Shown here: positions 22,150-30,285 of the stretch, piece by piece
Layout of the letters: every line of letters starts with the position of its first letter
Numbering within the stretch: position 1 is the stretch's first letter
NCBI GenBank assembly: GCA_020848905.1
Contig: JADLHG010000020.1
Location: forward strand, 8,230 to 72,229
Length of the DNA: 64,000 bases
DNA from: Deltaproteobacteria bacterium
Lineage (GTDB): Bacteria; Myxococcota_A; Polyangia; GCA-2747355; JADLHG01
Direction: 5' to 3'
Notes under the pieces: model-generated
The model's input: only the letters and a program-made list of their open reading frames with translations
Databases searched by the model: none
Told to the model about the DNA's origin: nothing
Position numbers and translations under genes: made by a program

Positions 22150-24375
22150 CTACCGGCACTCGTAGCGGTAGTAGGTCTGACCCTCGGGGCTCGTGAGGTC
22201 GATGGGGCAGCAGCGCTGGCTCGGGTCGCAGACGCGGAATTTCATCGAGGGTCCGTAGTAGTGCAGGTCGCAGATGCTCGCCTCGCTCGGGTGGCGGCAG
22301 GCTCCTTCGTAGCAGTACTCGCCGCGGCGGCAGAGTCGGCCGCAGGCCCCGCAGTGGATGGGGCCCTGCGTCGGGCCGCCCGTGCCGACCTTGAGATCCA
22401 CGCAGGCCTTGACGCAGGCGTTCCCGTGCCAGCTCGGGAAGGGGCAGAGCGTCTCGTTCGACTTGCACGGTGTGTACGGCTCGAGGTTCGCCTTGCAGGT
22501 GGCCTCCCGGCCCGGCGCACAGCACGAGCCCCCGATGCAGCTCCAGGTACCCGTGGGCGAGAGCGCCGTGCAGTCCGAGGCGCCCGACGGCGGCGGAATC
22601 CACCAGGCCGGCGGATGCGCTTCCGCCCAGTAGCGCGCGCACGCTTTCGCGTCCGAACAGAAGCTCGCGTCCCCCGTGTAGAACGGCTTGCAGGTGCCGT
22701 CGCTGTCGCAGTACTCGCCGAGCGTGCAGGCGTGGCCGCAGCTCCCGCAGTAGATGGTCTGCGCCTGGTCGTCCGGGTTGGTGTTCGGCTTCTTCGGCTT
22801 CAGCTCGAGGCAGCGCCCAGAGCAGCAGGTGAAGCCCTCCGTGCACGAGGGCGAGCAGGCGACGGTCGGGCACTCCTTCGGTGCGCTGCAGGTGTCGCAG
22901 CGCGCGCTGCAGCTCGCGCCGGCCGCGCAGCCGTTCGGGCTCGCGGTGGGGTCGCAGCGTTCACCGGGGCTCGCCTTGCCATCCCCGCAGCAGACGCACT
23001 CGCCTGGCCGCTGGCTTTGCGTGGGGCGATCCGAGACCCGCCGTCCGAAGGTCAGGTCCGCGGCGGCCGCGCTCGTCCCGTCACGTTCCACGAACGGGCT
23101 TTCCTTCGTGCCGGCCGCCCACGCCGCGGCGAGTGCCGCTCCGAGGTCCGGCTTCGCGCCCGTGACGGAGAAGTTCTTGAGCAGGTAGTGCGTGGCGGGG
23201 CAGGCGGGGAGCGCCAGGCTGGCCTCGCTGGCCTCGTCGCTCGACGCGGAGGTGAAGACGCGCTCCACCCCGGGCACCGCGGCGAGGGCGATCTGAAAGC
23301 CGCCGCTGAAGCAGGCCTCGAGGACGACGGTGATGTGGCAGGCCTTGAGCTGCTTGAGCGCGTCCGCGAGCTCGGCCTCGGAGATGAAGCGCTTGCCGAG
23401 CCGGACGTCCCAGCTCAGCGCTTCGCCCGGTCGCGCTGCGGCGACGAGCTGCCCATTGTCGTAGACCTGACCGTCCTCGCCGTAGAAGAGAAAATCATCG
23501 ACGCCGGCGGCGTTCTTGCGCGTCACCCGTCGCGCGCCGTGGGCGTTCACGAAGACCACCACCTCGTCGCAGCACTCGACCTGCGAGGCGAGGCCCGCGA
23601 GCGCCTGCAGGAAGGTGTCTCCCGCGCCGGGGTCCTTCGCGCCCCAGGCTCCGAGGAGCACGTCGAAGCCGAGCGCGCTCAGGGTGACCCACATCGCGTG
23701 CCCCGTGGCGAGGAGCAGGTCCTCGCCCGTGCCGTTGCCGGTGCCGATCACGCCGTAGCGGCGCGGCGCGCGGCCCGAGGCGCAGGTGACGTGCCGCTGC
23801 GAGGTGCGTAGCAGCACGTCCTTGGGCGGCTCGACGGTCGGCGGCGGGACGACTCGCCCACGGTAGGTGCTGTAGACCGTGAGGGCCTCGCTCGCGAGCT
23901 CGCCGAGGCGGGTCGGAAAGGCCGCGCGCCCGTCGAGGAGCGGCCAGTTCGAGGCGTGCCGGACGCTGACCGCCCCCGAGCTCTCGGAGACCAGCACGTG
24001 CCGCAGCGGGTGCTCGAGCAGCCGATGCGGCGCGTCGTCGATGACGAAGAGAAAGGAGGCCTCGCCGAGCGTCAGGCTATCCCGCCGCCCGTCCACGCCC
24101 AGGCGCGCGCCGGCCGCCGCCACCTGCGGCAGGGCGTAGACGATCACGTCGTGGTCGAGCGTCTTCCAGCCCAGCACCTCGTCGAGCACGCGCCGCTGCA
24201 CGGCGCTGAGCCCGGCCCGCGGTTCGGGCGCGGAACCGGAGGGTGGAGGGCTCTCGCTCGGGCTCTTGCAGGCGCCGCTGACGCCGACGGCCACGGCGCA
24301 GACCAGCAGGCCGAGCCAGGCGGCGGCGCGGCGGCGGGCAGGTTCGAAGCCCTCTTCTCGTTCGCGGCTCGGCAT
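22150..24375 (-). CDS. lipoprotein with clan-CD (legumain C13 / caspase-like) cysteine peptidase core and ~280-aa Cys-rich C-terminal region
   Basis: ORF 22150..24375. Lipobox GVSGAC|K. VVVFVNAHGARR (His-Gly, about codon 279) and ITVVLEACFSGGF (Cys, about codon 355) resemble the legumain/caspase catalytic dyad context. The C-terminal part (23001..22150) has repeated CGSCGHACTLGEYCDSDGTC / CGACGRLCRRGEYCYEGAC modules. Confidence 0.65.
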   Translation of the reverse strand: MPSREREEGFEPARRRAAAWLGLLVCAVAVGVSGACKSPSESPPPSGSAPEPRAGLSAVQRRVLDEVLGWKTLDHDVIVYALPQVAAAGARLGVDGRRDSLTLGEASFLFVIDDAPHRLLEHPLRHVLVSESSGAVSVRHASNWPLLDGRAAFPTRLGELASEALTVYSTYRGRVVPPPTVEPPKDVLLRTSQRHVTCASGRAPRRYGVIGTGNGTGEDLLLATGHAMWVTLSALGFDVLLGAWGAKDPGAGDTFLQALAGLASQVECCDEVVVFVNAHGARRVTRKNAAGVDDFLFYGEDGQVYDNGQLVAAARPGEALSWDVRLGKRFISEAELADALKQLKACHITVVLEACFSGGFQIALAAVPGVERVFTSASSDEASEASLALPACPATHYLLKNFSVTGAKPDLGAALAAAWAAGTKESPFVERDGTSAAAADLTFGRRVSDRPTQSQRPGECVCCGDGKASPGERCDPTASPNGCAAGASCSARCDTCSAPKECPTVACSPSCTEGFTCCSGRCLELKPKKPNTNPDDQAQTIYCGSCGHACTLGEYCDSDGTCKPFYTGDASFCSDAKACARYWAEAHPPAWWIPPPSGASDCTALSPTGTWSCIGGSCCAPGREATCKANLEPYTPCKSNETLCPFPSWHGNACVKACVDLKVGTGGPTQGPIHCGACGRLCRRGEYCYEGACRHPSEASICDLHYYGPSMKFRVCDPSQRCCPIDLTSPEGQTYYRYECR

Positions 24376-24464
24376 GGCGGCTCTCCCCGTGCACGGGCGA
24401 GTCTACCGAAGGGCGCGGAGGCGCGCGCGGGGTGCGAATCGGCGGTCGGGAGGCGGGCTCGAGG

Positions 24465-24908
24465 TTAACCCTTCATCATCTCCGCCAGGCGGCGGACGAT
24501 CTCCTCGCGCGAGACGAGCTCCACCACGGCGCAGATCGTCCAGCGGTTGCCGCCGCTGTCCTTCACCGTGGCCGAGCGATAGCCCCAGGCCTGATTCTTC
24601 GGCGGCTCCACGGAGGTCGCCCCCGCTTCGAGCGCGCGCCCGTAGGAAGCATCCACGGCCTTGGCGTCCGCCACGTAGTAGGAGAACGCGGCGGGCATCG
24701 CTTCCATCCCCATCATGGGCTCGCCGCACATCACGACGCTGTCGCCGAGGAGGAGCTCGGCGTGCATCAGCGCGCCGTTCGGGCCGTCGTAGCGATCCAC
24801 CACCTTCGCGCCGAAGGCCTGCTCGAGAAAGCGCACCACCTTGCCCGCTCCCTGGACGACGAAGGCCGGCGTGATGGTGTGATGACCGTAGGGACGAAGA
24901 TGGGACAT
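24465..24908 (-). CDS. VOC family (glyoxalase/bleomycin-resistance/PhnB-like) protein
   Basis: ORF 24465..24908. [26 protein letters not shown]...[18 protein letters not shown] and [17 protein letters not shown] match the VOC/PhnB-type pattern. No signal peptide. Confidence 0.8.
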
Positions 24909-24989
24909 GGGGTCCTCCTCTGGGGTGAAGGGTTTGCCGTGAAAAGCTGTCGGGGCGGGCCGCGGCCCGTGACGGACAGAGTACGCCCG

Positions 24990-26915
24990 CTAGAAGGTAC
25001 CGGTTACCCCCACCATCCCGCCCCCCGGTGCGGGGCCGAAGGCCAGGTTCAGGTTGAGGTCCGGGTCCTCGCGGTAGAGACGCAGCATGCGTTCCATGGG
25101 GGTCTCCATGTAGCGCAGCGAGACGCCGAGGCCGAAGAGGAGCGCGCTCATGGCTCCGCCCATGACGTAGATCGCGGCGGGGAGGTTGGTGCTCGACAAG
25201 CGGGCGTCCACGATGCCGATCGCCACGGTGGCACCGAGGAGCAGGCCCCCCTCGACGAAGGCCAGCGCGGAGACGAGGCGCCGGCGGCGGGCCTCGCGTT
25301 CGGCGAGCTCGAGGAGGTGCGCTTCGGTGCGGGCCACGACGGACTCGAAGCTCGCCCCGGGGCGTCGGAGCTCGTCTTCGAAGGCGGCGTAGGCCTTCTC
25401 CCCCTCCGAGCGCGCGAAGAGCCGCAGGAGGCCGGTGGCCGCGAGGGCGCCGCCCCCGCCGAGGAGCACGATCGCGGAGATCTTGGTCGTCTGGTCGAGC
25501 TCGCCGCTCTTCATGCCGAGGATCACGCCCCCCGAGGCGGCCACGACCAGGCCCCCGAGGGCGCTCGTGCCGGCGAGGGTCAGCCGGTCGGCGCGGTCGG
25601 CGCGGGCGAGCGCCGCCAGGTAGTGCCGCATGCGCACCTCGTCGCGCCAGGAGATGCCGAAGACCTCTTCGGCCGCCGGGTGCCGTCGTTCGCGCGCGTA
25701 GGCTTCGGGGCCGAAGGGCTCGGCGAAGAACTCCTCGTAGAGCGCGTCGTCCCCGCGGGCGAGGAGTGGCGTCGGGCGCGGGGTGAGCATCACCGAGGCG
25801 GTCGAGGTGGGCAGGCGGATCTCGCGCAGCGTGGGGCGCCCCCCTTTGCCGCGGGCCGCGACGAGCTCTTGCACGATGGCGCCCTCGGTCACGGGCATGG
25901 GCAAGACCAGCGTCAGCTCGCGCCCCCGCTCCTTGTGGACGTCGAGGAGGCGCGTCCCCTGGAGGTCCCGCACCCAGACCCGCTGCGCCGGCGGGCCGAG
26001 CACGAGCTTGCGCCCCACCGCGCGGTCCACGGCGAACAGCGAGGCGCCTCCGTTCTGGTAGGGCCCGCGTGCGAAGACCTTGGGGCGGAAGTGCTCGTTC
26101 TTGATGCGGCGATTCGCTATCGCCACGAAGGCCGCGAGCTCGTCGTACGAGACGCGCCCGTCGCCGTTCGCGTCCGCGGCGCCGGAGAGGCCCGAGCGCA
26201 CCTCGTGGCTGAAGATCCCCGACTGCAGCTCCGACCATTCGTAGACCTCGCCGGCCGCGCTCGTGGAGAGGAAGACCCCGACCTGCGGAAAGCGCTCCAC
26301 GAAGCCGAGCTTCAGGTCCTTCGGGGTGGCCCAGCGGCGGCCGCCGGCCTTGCGCGGGCTGATCACGAAGAAGGAGTTGCAGCTGTCGAGGATCAGGTGC
26401 GCGCGGTGGGCGGGGACCTTTCCCAGCACCTCCCGCTCCAGCTCCTCGGGCCCGAGCCGGCCGTCCTCGAGCTCGAGGTAGCCCTTGCCGCGGTCCACTT
26501 GCCCGTGGCCGGCGAAGACGAAGTAGAAGACCGTGTGCAGTCCCTTTGCACGGGCCGCGCGCACCGCGTCGGCGAGCTCGCGCACGGCCTGACGCAGCTC
26601 GGCGCGCCGAGGGGCCCGCGCGGTGGCCCCGAGCCCCGGATAGAGCGCGGCCGTGGGACGATCGAAGCGCGTGAGCAGGCGCAGGTGCCCGGGTTCGGTG
26701 ATGGTGCGGAAGACCTGCACGTAGCGCGCCCCGTCGTCGTCGGCGTACTGCAGGTTCGGTCGGTGCGGCAGGAGGCTCCGGTTGTTCGTCACCACGAGCG
26801 TGAAGCCGACCTCGGAGGCGGCTTCGACGGGCGACACACTGGCGAGGAGCAGGGCGGCCAGACCCGCCAGCACACCGAACGGTCTGGAACCCGTCGCGAG
26901 CCGACGCCTCCTCAT
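24990..26915 (-). CDS. exported caspase-family (peptidase C14-like) protein with Ca-binding-type loop and four C-terminal TM helices
   Basis: ATG at 26915 in ORF 24990..27422. Signal MRRRRLATGSRPFGVLAGLAALLLASVSPVEA|AS. Catalytic contexts YFVFAGHGQ (His137) and HLILDSCNS (Cys179). ADANGDGRVSYDELAAFV loop. Four hydrophobic helices near the C-terminus (for example LGGLVVAASGGVILGM and AIVLLGGGGALAATGLLRLF). The start overlaps the anti-sigma stop (ATGA). Confidence 0.75.
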   Translation of the reverse strand: MRRRRLATGSRPFGVLAGLAALLLASVSPVEAASEVGFTLVVTNNRSLLPHRPNLQYADDDGARYVQVFRTITEPGHLRLLTRFDRPTAALYPGLGATARAPRRAELRQAVRELADAVRAARAKGLHTVFYFVFAGHGQVDRGKGYLELEDGRLGPEELEREVLGKVPAHRAHLILDSCNSFFVISPRKAGGRRWATPKDLKLGFVERFPQVGVFLSTSAAGEVYEWSELQSGIFSHEVRSGLSGAADANGDGRVSYDELAAFVAIANRRIKNEHFRPKVFARGPYQNGGASLFAVDRAVGRKLVLGPPAQRVWVRDLQGTRLLDVHKERGRELTLVLPMPVTEGAIVQELVAARGKGGRPTLREIRLPTSTASVMLTPRPTPLLARGDDALYEEFFAEPFGPEAYARERRHPAAEEVFGISWRDEVRMRHYLAALARADRADRLTLAGTSALGGLVVAASGGVILGMKSGELDQTTKISAIVLLGGGGALAATGLLRLFARSEGEKAYAAFEDELRRPGASFESVVARTEAHLLELAEREARRRRLVSALAFVEGGLLLGATVAIGIVDARLSSTNLPAAIYVMGGAMSALLFGLGVSLRYMETPMERMLRLYREDPDLNLNLAFGPAPGGGMVGVTGTF

Positions 26916-27745
26916 CGCGCACCTCGCAGCGTCAGGGACCACTCCTGCACGTGCGCCTCGGGAAAGAGCCGCGCGAGCGAGGGGGCCTTCCCGGCGTCGC
27001 GCAGGAGCGCCTCCACCTGCTTCACCGAGCGGCGCTGCCGCGAGACGACCGAGACGGCGCGCAGGAGGCCGGGCTTCGCGTCGGGGGCGAAGACCTCGTG
27101 GAGCATCACGCGGCGCCCCCGCGGCAGGTCGAGCGCGAGCGGAGCCTTCGCCGGGTCGTCCCAGCGGGGGGCCGCCCAGTGCACCTCTCCCCCGGCCTCG
27201 ACGACGAAGACCAGCAGATAGAGCGGCGTGGGGGTGAGCCGGCTCACCTCGACCGCGAGACCCTCGTCGGCCGCGAGCAGATCGTGCGCGTTCAGGCGCC
27301 GGGGAGCGCCGTGCCGCTTTGCCGCGTAGAGCTCGACCCCCGTCAGCTCCTTCAGGCTCTCGGCCGTCGGACCGCCGCCGCGGGCCTGAAAGGTCTCCGC
27401 GCGACCGCCGGTGTGGCGCCACAGATAGACGCAGAGCGGAACGGTCACCGCGAGCACCGTGGCCGCGAGCGCGTAGGGGAGCCAGGAGGCGCGCGACGTC
27501 GCGGTGGGCGAGGGGTCGAGCCGGGCCATCGTGCGCGCCACGAAGGCCGCGGTGTCGGGCGAGGCGTCAGACGACACGCCTGGGGCCGGCGAGGCGATGG
27601 CCGCGAGCGTGACCTCGAGCCGAGAGGCGCGCGACCGGCACTCGCCGCATTCACCGAGGTGCGCCTCGAGGGCGCGAGCGCGCGCCACGGCCACCTGCTC
27701 CTCGCGCAGCGCAAGCAACTCGTCGTCGCTGGGGCAGCTCGTCAT
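26912..27745 (-). CDS. anti-sigma factor (zf-HC2 type), single-pass membrane protein
   Basis: ATG at 27745 in ORF 26912..28852. The N-terminus MTSCPSDDELLALREEQ...HLGECGECRSR has the H-x3-C-x2-C zinc motif. TM segment WLPYALAATVLAVTVPLCVYLW. Extracytoplasmic domain of ~170 aa. The start overlaps the sigma-factor stop (ATGA). Confidence 0.7.
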   Translation of the reverse strand: MTSCPSDDELLALREEQVAVARARALEAHLGECGECRSRASRLEVTLAAIASPAPGVSSDASPDTAAFVARTMARLDPSPTATSRASWLPYALAATVLAVTVPLCVYLWRHTGGRAETFQARGGGPTAESLKELTGVELYAAKRHGAPRRLNAHDLLAADEGLAVEVSRLTPTPLYLLVFVVEAGGEVHWAAPRWDDPAKAPLALDLPRGRRVMLHEVFAPDAKPGLLRAVSVVSRQRRSVKQVEALLRDAGKAPSLARLFPEAHVQEWSLTLRGAR

Positions 27746-28338
27746 GCGGAAACCTCCAGTCGGGCGCGTAGCGCGCGCAGACCCAAAAAGACGCGGGAGC
27801 GCACGGTGGCCTCGGGCGCGTCGACGATCGCTCCCACCTCGGCGTACGAGAGCCCTTCGCCGAAGCGCAGCAGCACGGCCTCGCGTAGCTTGGGGGAGAG
27901 ACCCCGGAGCTCGCGGTGCACACGTTCCGTGCGTTCGCGCCGGAGGAGCGCGTCGAGCTGCTCGGCGCGGTGCGACGGCTCGTTTGCCGCCGGGGCGTCC
28001 TGGAGCACGCGCTCGCGGCGAAAGAACCCGCGACGCGCGTTGCGGCAGACGTTGCGCACGATGGTGAAGAGGTACACGGCAAACTGCCCGTCCGGCCGAT
28101 AGCGCGCCCGGGCCTGCCAGAGCCGCAGAAACGCCTCCTGGGCCAGGTCCTCGCTGCGCGCGCCGTCCCACTTGGCGCAGAAGCTCCGCACCCGTCGCTC
28201 GTGTCGCGCGACGAGCGCGGCGAAGGCCTCGCGCAACCCGGCCGCCGCGAGCTCCATCAGCTCGTCGTCGGAGCGTGCCGCGAGCCCGCCCGGTTCGGGG
28301 CGCGGAAACGGCAGCACCTTGGGCTCGAAGCCGGGCAT
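27742..28338 (-). CDS. ECF (sigma-70 family, group 4) RNA polymerase sigma factor
   Basis: ORF 27742..28338. Region 2 (DLAQEAFLRLWQARARYRPDGQFAVYLFTIVRNVCRN) and region 4 (LSPKLREAVLLRFGEGLSYAEVGAIVDAPEATVRSRVFLGLRALR) are both recognisable. Confidence 0.9.
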   Translation of the reverse strand: MPGFEPKVLPFPRPEPGGLAARSDDELMELAAAGLREAFAALVARHERRVRSFCAKWDGARSEDLAQEAFLRLWQARARYRPDGQFAVYLFTIVRNVCRNARRGFFRRERVLQDAPAANEPSHRAEQLDALLRRERTERVHRELRGLSPKLREAVLLRFGEGLSYAEVGAIVDAPEATVRSRVFLGLRALRARLEVSA

Positions 28339-28361
28339 CTAGGTACCAGAACCCCCCTAGG

Positions 28362-28392
28362 CCGGTTTCGTTTAGCAGGGGCGGCGTTCTTT
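28362..28392 (-). promoter_or_regulatory. weak ECF-type promoter candidate upstream of the sigma gene
   Basis: The minus strand reads AAGAAC-N15-CGAAAC about 27 nt upstream of the ATG at 28338, loosely like the ECF GGAAC...CGT pattern. It is flanked by two CCTAGG palindromes (28356-28361 and 28394-28399). Pattern match only. Confidence 0.2.
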
Positions 28393-28611
28393 TCCTAGGC
28401 AGGCCGCCCCGCCGGGTGTCTCGCCGCCGCCCCGTAGCCCGCACGACCCCCCGGCGCCCCTCGCCCGTCCTGGCCAGCGGCCCAGCCAGCTCCCGCCCTG
28501 CGGGTCCTCCCACGAGCCCCGCGAACTGCCTATCCTTTTCACGCCCGCCGGCCGTCGTCGGTTGGTCCAGATGTTGCTGTCTCTTGTTTGCACAGGACGC
28601 TGGCCCCACCC

Positions 28612-30285
28612 ATGCCCCGACGGTACAGACTGTTCGTACGTCTCTCCGTGGCCCTCGCGCTGCTTCTGGCGGCCGCGGTGGGTCTCGAGCGACCCAGCGC
28701 CGCCGCGGGGCCAGGCGCGCTCGCGCGACGGTTCTTCGCGGGGCTCGCCAAAGGGCGGGTGAAAGGCTCGCGCGAGCCCGGCCTCGTGCTCGCGGCCAGC
28801 CCCAGCCAGCCGGTCGTGACGTCGCTCTTCGCCGTCGCGCGCAAGGTCGCACGTGGCGGGGCGCTCCATCCGGTCGGGATCGAGCCTTTCTCGAACGACG
28901 AGCTCAGCCTGCGCGTCCCGGCCGCTGTCCAGGGACGATCGATCGTGGTGGCGCAGCCCGCGGAGGCGCGCGAGCCCTCGACGGCGCTCTTCCGCACCCT
29001 GCTCGCGGTGGCGGCGAGCCAGAGCAACCTCGCCTCCTCGGTCCACGTGGTCCTCGATCGCGGCCTCGCGAAGCGCTTCGACCCGGCCTTCGTGGCCACG
29101 CTCTTCTCCGCGCTACACGCGGACTCGCTGCGCTACGCCGATGCGCACGGCGGCCCGCTCGAGCGACTTCTGCGCCCGCTCCGCGGTTCCGCCCTGGCCC
29201 AACGCTTGGGCGTCGACGGACCCCTCGTTCCTCGGCCGGTGCACCTGCCCCGCGAGGGACGCCGTTCCAAGCGCTCGGGCAGCGCCGCTCCGCCGCTGCT
29301 CTGGAGCGGTCACGGCTACCCCGAGCTGGCGCGGGGCGTGGGCGAGGCGATGGGGCTCGCGCCGCGCTTTCTGCCGACGGAGAAGGCCTTCCAGGGCCGC
29401 CAGATCCTCCCCGAGGACCCGGCCGGCCGACGCGTCTATCTCCTGCAGACCAAGCGCCTCGGCGATCCCGAGGCCCTGCACCGGGACCTCTTCGAGGTGC
29501 TCTACGCCGCCTGGCAGGCCAAGCAGCGCGGGGCCGCCGAGGTCACTCTCGTCATGCCCTATCTGCCCTACTCGCGCTCCGATCGCATGGATACCGCCGG
29601 CACCACCGTGGGCGCCGCGGTGCTACCGCAGCTCGCGCGCGCCGTCGGCGTGGACCGCGTGGCCTTCTACTCGGTGCATCAACCCCAAGAGGTCGGCTTC
29701 TTCCTCGGGCAGAAGATCCAGGTGCTGCACGCCTCGGGGGAGGCGGTCCTCGCCCCGGCGGTGGCGCGCCATCTGAAGGCCAAGCTCACGCCGAAGGAGC
29801 TCGCCAAGCACGTACGGGTGCTCGCGCCGGATCCGGGGGCACGCAAGCGCGCGCTGGTCTTCGCGCGCCTGCTCGCCGCCGAGCTCGGCCTGCCGGAGGT
29901 CAAGGTCGTCGTGGCCGAGAAGGAGCGGCACGGCCGCGACGTGAAGACCCGCTTCACCGCGAACGTGCGCAAGGCGGTGCTCGTAGCTATCGACGACGAG
30001 ACGGCGAGCGGCAAGACCCTCGCGCAGCTCGTCGAGCCGGCGCTCGCGAAGGGTGCGACCTCGATGCTCGCCGCGGTGAGCCACCTCACGGGGCCGGCCT
30101 ACCGCCTGCTCGACAGCTCGCGGCTCGAGCGGCTCTTCGCCCTCGACACCGTGCCGCAGCCGCGCGAGCACCACGACAACGCCAAGATCGAGATCGTGAG
30201 CGTGGCCCAGGCCGTGGGCCGGCTGCTCACCACCCTGGATGGGAGAGGGGACCTCTCGAAACAGCTCTTCTGGGAGCACGAATAA
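28612..30285 (+). CDS. ribose-phosphate pyrophosphokinase (PRPP synthetase)-like protein with signal peptide and an extra degenerate N-domain
   Basis: ATG at 28612 in ORF 28588..30285. Signal MPRRYRLFVRLSVALALLLAAAVGLERPSAAA|G. The C-terminal ~310 aa are Prs-like (VTLVMPYLPYSRSDR, VLAPDPGARKRA, LVAIDDETASGKTL). They are preceded by a degenerate copy of the Prs N-domain (VGIEPFSNDELSLRVPAAVQGRSIVVAQP...LFRTLLAVAASQS). Confidence 0.7.
   Translation: MPRRYRLFVRLSVALALLLAAAVGLERPSAAAGPGALARRFFAGLAKGRVKGSREPGLVLAASPSQPVVTSLFAVARKVARGGALHPVGIEPFSNDELSLRVPAAVQGRSIVVAQPAEAREPSTALFRTLLAVAASQSNLASSVHVVLDRGLAKRFDPAFVATLFSALHADSLRYADAHGGPLERLLRPLRGSALAQRLGVDGPLVPRPVHLPREGRRSKRSGSAAPPLLWSGHGYPELARGVGEAMGLAPRFLPTEKAFQGRQILPEDPAGRRVYLLQTKRLGDPEALHRDLFEVLYAAWQAKQRGAAEVTLVMPYLPYSRSDRMDTAGTTVGAAVLPQLARAVGVDRVAFYSVHQPQEVGFFLGQKIQVLHASGEAVLAPAVARHLKAKLTPKELAKHVRVLAPDPGARKRALVFARLLAAELGLPEVKVVVAEKERHGRDVKTRFTANVRKAVLVAIDDETASGKTLAQLVEPALAKGATSMLAAVSHLTGPAYRLLDSSRLERLFALDTVPQPREHHDNAKIEIVSVAQAVGRLLTTLDGRGDLSKQLFWEHE

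Follow-up and report, generated by a model that had tools for sequence, protein, structure and literature searches.

Gene order, promoter and conservation of the locus

Three minus-strand genes encoding a stress-type ECF sigma factor, its membrane-bound anti-sigma factor and a membrane-anchored caspase-like protein predicted to face the periplasm follow one another in the window, by which we mean the whole 64,000-nucleotide stretch of DNA that was analysed. As read from the sequence, they are chained by ATGA overlaps, and the gene models are those of the NCBI annotation of the Deltaproteobacteria MAG (MCC6747904, 03 and 02). The features of the locus are:

28348..28374, minus: ECF-type promoter (-35-like TAAACG at 28369-28374, -10-like GGGTTCT at 28348-28354)
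27742..28338, minus: ECF (group 4) sigma factor, 198 aa, RpoE/AlgU/SigW-like (Pfam, TIGR02937, structures)
26912..27745, minus: anti-sigma factor, class I zinc type (CHCC), single-pass, 277 aa (motif, profile, AF2)
27638..27661, minus: zinc-binding motif H29-x3-C33-x2-C36 (columns invariant in 69 sequences)
27413..27478, minus: anti-sigma TM helix, residues 90-111 (AF2 helix 90-111; hydropathy peak in all orthologues)
27377..27385, minus: A121-R122-G123 in the linker just beyond the membrane, with a predicted site-1 cut after R122
26927..27343, minus: Ig-like beta-sandwich ectodomain, residues 135-273 (AF2 pLDDT about 90)
24990..26915, minus: exported, membrane-anchored, metacaspase-like cysteine protease, 641 aa
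26820..26915, minus: signal peptide, residues 1-32, with putative cleavage at ...SPVEA/AS (hydropathy, AF2)
26106..26819, minus: caspase/hemoglobinase-fold catalytic domain, residues 33-270 (His137 at 26505-26507, Cys179 at 26379-26381)
26139..26180, minus: EF-hand calcium-binding loop within the catalytic domain, residues 246-259 (EF-hand_5, PDB matches)
25812..26081, minus: beta-sandwich domain of the protease, residues 279-368 (AF2 strands, pLDDT about 86)
25752..25757, minus: R387-G388, an Arg-Gly pair at the linker end (R in 80/80, G in 77/80, within an otherwise variable stretch)
25116..25577, minus: membrane module of four hydrophobic helices, the second and third separated by about 45 aa of soluble helical insert (hydropathy, AF2)
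24993..25055, minus: conserved C-terminal beta-hairpin with an aromatic end, ...GVTGTF (AF2 strands 621-629 and 632-640)

Both stop/start overlaps given in the initial annotation are present: at 27742-27745, the sigma TGA (27744-27742) shares bases with the anti-sigma ATG (27745-27743), and at 26912-26915 the anti-sigma TGA (26914-26912) meets the protease ATG (26915-26913) in the same way. SD-like GGAGG and GAGG sequences lie 6-7 nt 5' of the two internal starts. In other genomes, a 4-nt overlap recurs at 56 of 68 sigma/anti-sigma junctions and 50 of 72 anti-sigma/protease junctions, counts that take the start codon closest to the upstream stop and are biased toward overlaps; because of this recurrence, the ATGA overlaps of the triad exceed chance. 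The genes had been described as likely co-translated: the coupling stands, but the correct term is translationally coupled.

Ahead of the sigma gene, the family shares the consensus TTCAACG-N13-GGTGTTCT, which reaches at least 11 of 15 matches at fixed spacing in 47 of 74 upstream regions; in shuffled control sequences, a score of 12 was reached in just 2 of 1480. The copy in the window scores 12/15. Its -10-like element ends 9 nt 5' of the sigma ATG, and the operon mRNA, from the predicted TSS, therefore probably has little or no leader. Judged by its sequence, the promoter may depend on the operon's own sigma factor. In one clade, a second copy precedes a TonB-dependent receptor gene with ExbB/ExbD; the sigma factor therefore has further outputs.

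The linkage of the three genes, whose synteny the initial annotation had set as a check, proved strongly conserved from the protease side and the anti-sigma side alike. Both upstream genes lie directly 5' of the protease gene in about 74 of 80 species-level loci, sigma orthologues (36-51% identity) being found there in 73, and when the search began from the anti-sigma factor, the protease came next in 28 of 33 loci. The only conserved clusters around the protease gene are sigma, anti-sigma and protease. Order, strand and overlaps are kept in Polyangia, Myxococcia, Kofleriaceae and Anaeromyxobacteraceae at just 25-55% protein identity, and inheritance across the phylum is vertical, mostly with one or two copies. 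The triad is thus a self-contained module spanning Myxococcota that is co-inherited as a unit. Exceptions are one locus with sigma and anti-sigma but no protease (L123), two with a protease that has intact catalytic residues but neither partner (L001 and L044), and one in which the protease gene is rearranged and retains its own promoter copy (L086).

The sigma factor, its anti-sigma factor and the exported protease

The sigma factor is recognized by Pfam (Sigma70_r2, E 9e-15; r4_2, E 2e-12) and by TIGR02937 (91.7 bits, cut-off 42.9); its nearest solved structures are 6in7, 1or7 and SigW. In the anti-sigma factor, C4, H29, C33 and C36 are conserved in the alignment. The HxxxCxxC motif was found in 70 of 77 orthologues, zf-HC2 matches in 55 of 69, and the profile matches RsiW (E 4e-8), ChrR and the anti-sigma domain of DdvA. 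The AF2 model has a mean pLDDT of 81, falling below 50 in linker residues 112-124, which are predicted to be disordered. It is in this linker that the sole invariant Arg of the protein, R122, is located (R in 69/69 sequences, the following G in 68/69), and the A-R-G motif always lies 5-20 residues past the TM helix in the 69 sequences. The ectodomain beyond it has H189, W190, P193 and G226 as invariants. Foldseek returned generic Ig-like matches only, and DUF4384 matches occur in 2 of 69 orthologues (best E 1.8e-4). Ectodomain distances correlate with those of the caspase domain at a rho of 0.67, against 0.47 for the anti-sigma factor's own cytoplasmic domain, which is weak evidence.

The third protein belongs to the clan-CD cysteine proteases, bears a signal peptide and most resembles metacaspases in its fold. 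The initial annotation had read it as carrying a signal peptide, a C14-type dyad context, a calcium-binding-type loop and four C-terminal TM helices, and we recovered each of these. At the N terminus, a signal-type hydrophobic segment peaks in hydropathy at residues 12-34, AF2 places a helix at 13-25, and relatives have an equivalent segment. His137, within FAGHG, and Cys179, within LDSCNS, are present in 80 of 80 relatives, so that the dyad, whose conservation had been another proposed check, is invariant, as are D177 and D59-D61. The membrane segments are predicted as hydrophobic helices at 447-468, 479-501, 546-571 and 578-600, from hydropathy and long AF2 helices. Searched with phmmer against 1.84 billion representatives, the membrane module is confined to this protease family. 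The calcium-binding-type loop, ADANGDGRVSYDEL at 246-259, matches EF-hand_5 at E 2.4e-5, marginally below the Pfam cut-off, and PDB EF-hand proteins at E 7e-5; AF2 models a helix-loop-helix at 229-268, and D248, Y257 and E259 are kept in 80/80 members, D252 in 76/80 and G253 in 77/80.

At the sequence level, the protease gave no C14 match in Pfam, and its matches to metacaspases and orthocaspases were all below threshold. In a weak hhalign p20 alignment (E 0.004) to the authenticated metacaspase AtMC4, H137 aligns with His86, C179 with Cys139, D177 with Asp137 and D61 with Asp25. D177 and D59-61 are candidates for acidic pocket residues. The pocket match is partial: Ala135 stands in the place of AtMC4 Ser84, and Asp352 of AtMC4 could not be paired with any residue of the protease (E 0.11). 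AtMC4 is Arg/Lys-specific and cannot do without its Asp137, one of the residues lining the Lys/Arg pocket (PMC7206013). By analogy, the metacaspase-type acidic residue would favour cuts after Arg or Lys. Linker residues 373-387 have a pLDDT below 50 and are predicted to be disordered; the small-R-G motif around R387 resembles A-R122-G of the anti-sigma factor, and R387-G388 may serve for self-processing or as a pseudo-substrate. In the mature protease, the catalytic Cys is the lone Cys in 53 of 80 members, as would suit a thiol enzyme of the periplasm. The chain ends in F in 66 of 80 members, in L in 9 and in W in 3.

Possible roles of the protease

What, then, could the protease do in this operon? 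As the best explanation overall, we propose that it cuts the anti-sigma factor at the invariant Arg122 and thereby frees the sigma factor, making the triad one autoregulated signalling module of myxobacteria; to this explanation as a whole we give a little less than an even chance. The suggested role of a dedicated site-1 protease can now be put in specific terms and appears plausible because the sole invariant R122 lies in a linker predicted to be disordered, the protease has an Arg/Lys-type pocket residue, and it carries its own R387-G388. At rest, the anti-sigma factor would keep the sigma factor at the membrane. A periplasmic or envelope signal would switch the protease on, candidate triggers being calcium bound by the EF-hand or some change that the membrane module senses, and activation may include self-cleavage at R387-G388. 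The protease would then cut after Arg122, in the flexible linker beyond the membrane; the short anti-sigma stub would become a substrate for an RseP-type site-2 protease, and the freed sigma factor would transcribe its own operon and lineage-specific targets. The nearest solved membrane-bound pairs, RpoE-RseA, AlgU-MucA and SigW-RsiW, are all under site-1/site-2 proteolysis.

Against such a cut stand the partial pocket match, the weak p20 alignment, the lack of a Pfam C14 match and the exceptional loci L123, L001 and L044. Translational coupling implies about equal protein amounts, which is commoner for a stable complex than for an enzyme and its substrate. A site-1 protease co-expressed under autoregulation would create positive feedback and require tight gating. 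The invariant A-R-G could also be a docking motif instead of a scissile site.

A somewhat unlikely alternative makes the protease a product of the sigma regulon and not its activator: once the sigma factor is switched on, the cell would make a periplasmic enzyme for processing or quality control, with its substrates among other envelope proteins, prey proteins or secreted proteins. Inactivation of the anti-sigma factor would then fall to general proteases (DegS/Prc-type together with RseP) or to zinc/redox chemistry at CHCC, a ZAS-type motif that could sense oxidants. ECF operons often carry effector genes; here, a sigma-type promoter governs the protease gene even where it is relocated (L086), the promoter copy at the TonB-dependent receptor shows further outputs, and the orphan proteases of L001 and L044 are catalytically intact. 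However, an output gene would hardly be the best-conserved, most tightly linked and sole conserved neighbour phylum-wide, the frequent stop/start overlap with the anti-sigma factor suggests physical partnership, and the single invariant Arg of the anti-sigma linker and the matching R-G of the protease would be left unexplained. Partnership could also mean a stable periplasmic complex of protease and ectodomain without a productive cut, which we regard as quite unlikely: the A-R-G linker and Ig-like ectodomain would fill the active site as pseudo-substrate or inhibitor until true substrates, foreign or misfolded proteins, displace the ectodomain, opening the anti-sigma factor to other proteases or shifting its conformation, so that the protease would be a sensor, not scissors. 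The equal stoichiometry suggested by translational coupling and the correlated distances of ectodomain and caspase domain are in line with this, and metacaspase-4 keeps its own Lys225 uncleaved in the pocket until Ca2+ comes (PMC7206013). DUF4384-like domains are fused to bacterial orthocaspases as accessories (PMC7475262), but the signal in the two matching ectodomains is very weak. The strictly invariant dyad argues for real catalysis, though catalysis on other substrates fits as well.

We consider it very improbable that the third protein serves a conflict or defence system as a membrane effector that activates itself, with a self-cut at R387-G388 freeing or unmasking helices that then damage the membrane and the ECF pair merely controlling expression. 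The invariant R387-G388 does stand between enzyme and membrane module, and EACC2-caspase conflict systems may have a neighbouring ECF sigma factor (PMC8195603). The best NCBIfam match is an EACC1-associated caspase type (18 of 30 members, best E 1.3e-6), but at 21 bits it scores well under the cut-off of 140; likewise, a lone, very weak SLATT_1 match on residues 454-547 (E 0.05) was not recovered at E<=0.01 in 30 members. PADLOC matched none of the genes, no EACC, NTPase or other conflict-system components were found nearby, the caspase domain is exported here and cytoplasmic in conflict systems, and vertical, phylum-wide conservation is unlike that of mobile defence islands. Finally, since bacterial operons often contain 4-nt overlaps, adjacency and overlaps could reflect compact packing of a high-GC genome with no functional link. 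This is effectively refuted by the retention of order, strand and overlaps at 25-55% identity among otherwise unconserved neighbours.

Relation to known systems

The triad resembles classic regulated proteolysis (RseA/DegS/RseP, MucA/AlgW, RsiW/PrsW/RasP): its sigma factor is nearest AlgU, RpoE and SigW and its anti-sigma factor nearest RsiW, the single-pass anti-sigma factor has an ectodomain that would block the site-2 protease, and a near-membrane site-1 cut is proposed to precede the site-2 cut. In known cases, the site-1 cut is made by a serine protease (DegS, AlgW, Prc), by the membrane metalloprotease PrsW or by signal peptidase. Whereas the genes of these shared or general enzymes lie at other places in the genome, the triad has a caspase-fold cysteine protease within the sigma/anti-sigma operon, translationally coupled to it.

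A closer parallel is DdvS-DdvA of Myxococcus xanthus, an ECF sigma factor with a transmembrane anti-sigma factor bearing a periplasmic TPR-CHAT (PMC11506125; PDB 8rot, 8rlz). Its authors propose that the caspase-like domain cuts the linker at site-1 ahead of RseP, which degrades DdvA after ectodomain removal (PMC11506125). Both systems are of Myxococcota origin and share a CHCC zinc-type cytoplasmic anti-sigma domain (the triad profile matches 8rlz at E 2e-5), one TM helix that leads into a flexible linker, and the proposed site-1 role for a caspase-family protease. In DdvA, however, a CHAT/separase-type protease with TPR repeats is fused to the anti-sigma factor and, as proposed, works in trans inside a dimer, whereas the triad protease is a separate, metacaspase-like gene product with EF-hand, beta-sandwich and its own four-helix anchor, facing an anti-sigma factor with a small Ig-like ectodomain. 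DdvS controls a CBASS/CRISPR island, while neighbour clusters and PADLOC place no defence genes with the triad. If our proposed cut is real, the triad matches the fused DdvA in split form, with the protease acting in trans.

With metacaspases and orthocaspases (MEROPS C14B; AtMC4 6w8r, AtMC9, Yca1, TbMCA2, GSU0716), the protease shares the H-then-C order and D-S-C motif, and a role for calcium is indicated in each. A linker Arg/Lys is where metacaspases process themselves (PMC7206013), as we suspect for R387. Unlike them, the triad protease is exported and membrane-anchored by a unique C-terminal module, has Ala for pocket Ser84, and carries a canonical EF-hand where AtMC4 has an acidic L5 loop.

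Caspase-family proteases are genetically linked to ECF sigma factors elsewhere, too. [quoted passage not shown] ECF54 genes have a CHAT/subtilase/carboxypeptidase context and EACC2-caspase a neighbouring ECF sigma factor (PMC8999054; PMC8195603); in these computational reports, as here, caspase-fold proteins turn up repeatedly beside genes for ECF sigma factors, over which they may exert proteolytic control. According to its description, ECF54 lacks an anti-sigma factor, which the triad has, and the constant EACC domain, variable sensor domains, DUF1822 TPR protein and predicted conflict role of EACC systems were not found in the triad. The earlier view that the arrangement had not been characterised thus needs dividing: related designs, fused (DdvA) and contextual (craspase, ECF54, EACC2-caspase), are published, and the triad is not unprecedented, while the split sigma/anti-sigma/protease triad itself is new and uncharacterised within the literature searched.

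Three adjacent genes conserved across Myxococcota

The genes for the ECF sigma factor, the zinc-type anti-sigma factor and the exported metacaspase-like protease follow one another directly, preceded by a putative promoter:

28348-28374, minus strand: window copy of the putative ECF-type promoter, TAAACG...GGGTTCT, ending 9 nt before the ATG
27742-28338, minus strand: sigma factor ORF, 198 aa
26912-27745, minus strand: anti-sigma factor ORF, 277 aa
24990-26915, minus strand: protease ORF, 641 aa

The initial annotation, which had placed ATGA stop/start overlaps at 27742-27745 and 26912-26915, was exact: both junctions are found there and join all three ORFs. On reading the sequence, each of the two internal starts, that of the anti-sigma factor and that of the protease, has an SD-like motif ahead of it (GGAGG and GAGG). 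The NCBI annotation of the 117-kb Deltaproteobacteria MAG contig holds the same three gene models, named ‘RNA polymerase sigma factor’ (MCC6747904) and, for the other two, ‘hypothetical protein’ (MCC6747903 and MCC6747902). Between 24403 and 27422, several frames on both strands also hold ORFs of 810-929 aa that run across the real genes; these are high-GC shadow ORFs, and the antisense ones even cluster as ‘conserved’ across loci, so that in this genome the length of an ORF is by itself a misleading guide. A search of 24300-28700 gave no sigma-70 promoter and no convincing terminator, and the window has neither Rfam families nor tRNAs.

Downstream of the protease gene lies a small glyoxalase/VOC-family gene (24465-24908, minus strand; Pfam E 2.4e-9), separated from its two neighbours by 81 and 89 nt; as no terminator was detected 3' of the protease gene, read-through into it is possible. 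The next gene (22150-24375, minus strand) encodes a second clan-CD-like protein of 741 aa. Its N terminus is lipoprotein-like, its C-terminal region is rich in Cys and resembles MXAN_6577 (NCBIfam E 8e-6), and it gives a weak Peptidase_C13/caspase signal (Pfam E 0.022), with the His within VFVNAHGA and the Cys within LEACFSGG. The protein shows no conserved linkage to the triad in other genomes.

How far does the arrangement extend beyond the window? A scan of one genome per species returned 223 relatives of the protease, and all those with informative names belong to Myxococcota (Polyangia, Myxococcus, Corallococcus, Cystobacter, Pyxidicoccus, Hyalangium, Kofleriaceae, Anaeromyxobacteraceae, Labilithrix, Minicystis and Sorangium). 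The grouping proposed initially recurs widely: among the best 80 of these 223 loci, about 74 carry sigma and anti-sigma genes immediately upstream on the same strand, with orthologue identities of 36-51% for the sigma factor and 24-39% for the anti-sigma factor. Only two of the best 80 with upstream DNA lack both genes (L001, 8001-10001; L044, 5626-7836), and their proteases are catalytically intact though orphan. All-against-all clustering of ORFs recovered the protease in 81 loci, the anti-sigma factor in 77 and the sigma factor in 73, and no other gene is conserved around the protease. Overlaps of 4 nt occur at 56 of 68 sigma/anti-sigma and 50 of 72 anti-sigma/protease junctions, counts favoured by choosing the start nearest the upstream stop. 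The reciprocal test, a metagenome scan from the anti-sigma ectodomain, used an 11-sequence subset, the full 69-sequence alignment being too divergent; the protease came next in 28 of the 33 loci with enough downstream DNA. A weak protease match in one locus (L097, E 4.2) may be the start of a protease gene at a contig end. Another locus (L123, 3381-4822) holds a true sigma/anti-sigma pair with intact ARG and EVHW motifs, and the protease gene is absent within 4 kb downstream.

The sigma factor, its promoter and the anti-sigma factor

By its domains, the sigma factor is an ECF protein of group 4 (Pfam Sigma70_r2, E 9e-15; r4_2, E 2e-12); it scores 91.7 bits against TIGR02937, whose cut-off is 42.9, and its nearest solved structures are AlgU, RpoE, M. 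tuberculosis SigE and SigW. It also has the expected ECF context, with a co-encoded anti-sigma factor overlapping its stop codon and an AAC-containing -35 element upstream. This element belongs to a bipartite motif, TTCAACG-N13-GGTGTTCT, located 7-14 nt upstream of the sigma start. At fixed spacing the motif scores at least 11 of 15 in 47 of 74 loci, with further loci matching if the spacing is shifted by one base; in the control, shuffled sequences score 12 in just 2 of 1480 cases. Allowing up to one mismatch gives 48 occurrences in 1.1 Mb of loci, of which 46 share the strand of the operon. We infer from the sequence that it is an ECF-type promoter used by the triad's own sigma factor, which would make the operon autoregulated. 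The -10-like element of the window copy ends 9 nt before the ATG, suggesting a near-leaderless transcript. In most loci this element likewise lies 7-14 nt from the sigma start codon (28339-28354 in the window and equivalents elsewhere), and no SD motif is evident; the sigma mRNA is probably leaderless or near-leaderless, unlike the two SD-preceded downstream genes.

No convincing further copy of the promoter was found in the window, where up to two mismatches give 7 matches against 2.65 expected, the other six being unlinked to the operon. Elsewhere the motif moves with rearrangement or recurs: in L086 (1-1300), where the protease gene is divergent and upstream of the sigma gene, an exact copy of its own lies at 627 on the minus strand, and in one Polyangiales clade (L065, L068, L069 and L074) a second copy lies just 3' of the protease gene. 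In L068 (7872-11877) this second copy precedes a TonB-dependent receptor (Plug, E 3.7e-7), a 333-aa protein, ExbB and ExbD; these genes probably represent lineage-specific members of the regulon.

In the anti-sigma factor, the zinc ligands C4, H29, C33 and C36 are conserved, with Hx3Cx2C present in 70 of 77 orthologues. The zf-HC2 model matches 55 of 69 orthologues, the window protein itself remaining sub-threshold (15.8 vs 22.2 bits), and a profile of the 69 orthologues matches the anti-sigma domains of RsiW (4e-8), ChrR, M. xanthus DdvA (2e-5) and RsrA. An N-terminal domain with Hx3Cx2C and an upstream ligand would place the protein, as judged from its sequence, in class I of the ZAS proteins. 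A word-index search yields few such anti-sigma factors, 3 from the single sequence and 11 from a profile. The AF2 model (mean pLDDT 81) runs from a helical cytoplasmic domain through a TM helix (90-111) and a low-confidence linker (112-124) into an ectodomain of about 165 aa, which contains a confidently modelled Ig-like beta-sandwich (135-273). For this ectodomain, Foldseek returned generic Ig-like folds only. DUF4384, an accessory domain that has been described in bacterial orthocaspases (PMC7475262), was suspected here and rejected, with weak matches in just 2 of 69 orthologues.

A metacaspase-like protease and two candidate cleavage sites

The AF2 model and hydropathy give the protease a signal-type helix, a catalytic domain (33-270) that encloses an EF-hand helix-loop-helix (229-268), a beta-sandwich (279-368), a disordered linker (373-387), helices including four hydrophobic segments, and a C-terminal beta-hairpin. 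The His137/Cys179 dyad named in the initial annotation is invariant in 80 of 80 orthologues; N45, D59-D61, A135-G-H137-G, D177-S-C179, S181, R387 and the EF-loop residues D248, Y257 and E259 are likewise invariant across the 80 family members. As in clan CD, the protein has the caspase/hemoglobinase alpha-beta fold, with His and then Cys at the ends of equivalent strands. Aligning the family profile with the p20 of Arabidopsis metacaspase-4 (AtMC4) by hhalign (E 0.004) pairs H137 with His86, C179 with Cys139, D177 with Asp137 and D61 with Asp25; the AtMC4 bait was a fragment identical to residues 1-158 of PDB 6w8s, with a second fragment identical to residues 330-418. The window protease falls short of the gathering score of Pfam PF00656, giving no match at E<=0.1, and 11 of 30 relatives match at E<=0.01 (best 4e-7); as the subfamily is divergent, we claim membership by fold and not by the curated sequence model. 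PDB sequence searches with the protease and the family profile likewise returned EF-hand proteins only, so that caspase membership rests on the fold.

Which residues might such an enzyme cut? Metacaspases and orthocaspases cleave after Arg or Lys, in many cases depending on calcium. In AtMC4 the P1 Lys/Arg pocket is formed by Asp137, Ser84, Asp352 and Ser350 (PMC7206013). Asp137 is matched in the protease, whereas Ser84 is replaced by Ala135, and for Asp352, on the p10 side, no equivalent is alignable because the p10 alignment is too weak. Judged from this partial match, the protease likely prefers a basic P1 residue. Only one arginine of the anti-sigma factor is invariant: R122, within [F/W/L]-x-A-R-G (n=69). 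In 69 of 69 sequences it sits 5-20 residues beyond the TM helix on the outer side, within a linker of pLDDT<50. A small-R-G motif of similar kind (R387 in 80 of 80 members, G388 in 77 of 80) closes the disordered linker between the periplasmic domains of the protease and its membrane module. An invariant residue in a variable, unstructured stretch is more readily explained by recognition or cleavage than by a role in folding. The catalytic Cys is the sole Cys of the mature protease in 53 of 80 members, and the ectodomain is free of Cys in 58 of 69 anti-sigma factors. In a mirror-tree comparison, ectodomain distances correlate with those of the caspase domain at rho 0.67, against 0.47 with the anti-sigma factor's own cytoplasmic domain, which lends weak support, confounded as it is by shared phylogeny. 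Together, the lone catalytic Cys, the Cys-free ectodomain and this correlation fit, and do not prove, recognition or cleavage at R122 and R387.

Relatives of the C-terminal membrane module were found by phmmer only within the protease family (1.84 billion representatives searched), and a SLATT-like hint in the window protein (E 0.05) disappeared on checking relatives. The terminal hairpin (residues 621-641; 24993-25055, minus strand) is conserved, with the consensus ...LSGxF and a last residue that is F in 66 of 80 members, L in 9 and W in 3; it is reminiscent of the C-terminal motifs that DegS/RseP-type proteases recognise through their PDZ domains, or of the beta-signals of OMPs. In one 455-aa metagenome protein (P0208), the caspase domain runs straight into the helical membrane module and the EF-hand, beta-sandwich and R-G linker are missing, which may reflect a natural deletion or an assembly artefact.

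A possible site-1 protease and its context

Of the readings considered, the best supported is that the protease is the triad's dedicated site-1 protease and sensor, a serious possibility that we hold with some reserve. A signal, which could be calcium at the EF-hand or a change detected through the membrane module, would switch the protease on; it would then cut the anti-sigma factor after R122, an RseP-type enzyme would remove the remaining stub, and the freed sigma factor would transcribe its own operon. Beyond the gene identities and their conservation, we infer every step, and the comparison with site-1/site-2 proteolysis draws on the architecture, a single-pass anti-sigma factor with an ectodomain, and on relatedness to RsiW/RseA-type systems. 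The initial interpretation of the protease as a possible dedicated site-1 enzyme is thereby partly supported and narrowed to one specific candidate cleavage site.

Several points count against this reading: translationally coupled genes should yield their products in equal stoichiometry, and a protease made along with the sigma factor entails positive feedback; the pocket is matched in part, some loci are orphan or otherwise exceptional, and the cleavage itself is a prediction from sequence. The protease could instead be an output of the sigma regulon, which we consider unlikely, if still a contender to be reckoned with; even so, a well-defined and widespread myxobacterial regulon would remain. 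A non-cleaving sensor-inhibitor complex of protease and ectodomain appears improbable, and a self-activating membrane effector as the third protein more improbable still. Chance adjacency is scarcely credible and was rejected on the two-way synteny and the absence of other conserved neighbours. Returning to the site-1 protease, its broadest form, a phylum-wide ECF class with a calcium-gated, membrane-anchored, translationally coupled metacaspase-like enzyme that cuts A-R122|G and processes itself at R387|G388, is a tentative proposal for which we claim slightly less than for the site-1 role itself.

The closest known system is DdvS-DdvA of M. xanthus. DdvA combines a CHCC zinc-type anti-sigma domain with a periplasmic TPR-CHAT part that has a His-Cys dyad, the two being joined by a TM helix and a flexible linker; its authors propose that a signal-induced, caspase-like cut in the linker is the site-1 step ahead of RseP, and consider validation impossible until the signal is found (PMC11506125). 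Compared with DdvA, the triad is a split version, in which the protease is separate, metacaspase-like and membrane-anchored and the ectodomain is small and Ig-like; no TPR or CHAT match was found in the triad's anti-sigma factor, and no anti-sigma domain in its protease. In the triad's anti-sigma factor, the low-confidence linker (residues 112-124) follows the TM helix and could be within reach of the exported, co-encoded His-Cys enzyme. Other links between caspase-like proteins and sigma factors include craspase, in which Csx29 cleaves the RpoE-binding protein Csx30 (bioRxiv 10.1101/2022.08.17.504292), CHAT proteins in the gene context of ECF54 (PMC8999054), and EACC2-caspase systems, which an ECF sigma gene sometimes adjoins (PMC8195603). 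Membership of the EACC1/EACC2-caspase systems, in which a constant EACC domain is fused to the caspase, was rejected for the protease, which scores 20.9 bits against NF047832 (cut-off 140) and whose signal peptide is followed directly by the caspase domain. PADLOC models gave no match for the sigma factor, the anti-sigma factor, the protease or the neighbouring 741-aa protein. A literature search turned up no paper that describes the triad, cites its locus tags or reports a site-1 protease of the metacaspase type, and caspases are absent from the main text of the paper that reclassified the ECF factors.

For most ECF anti-sigma factors, we know of no assigned site-1 protease or triggering signal. 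In the triad, a conserved enzyme is the candidate, the scissile bond is predicted, calcium is a possible ligand and the reporter promoter is defined, and all of these are present in cultured myxobacteria (e.g. MYSTI_01551 and COCOR_01483). If the site-1 role holds, the protease would be the first caspase-fold enzyme known to act in trans as the site-1 protease of an anti-sigma factor, the triad would allow a tractable two-protein, simpler in-trans test of the caspase-as-site-1 model proposed for DdvA, a defence regulator, and caspase-fold proteases of bacteria would gain a periplasmic signalling role of a housekeeping kind. In each of three MAGs there are two paralogous triads of different subfamilies (L009 and L065, L010 and L079, L061 and L070); each paralogous protease retains its own sigma and anti-sigma factor, which suggests insulated parallel pathways.
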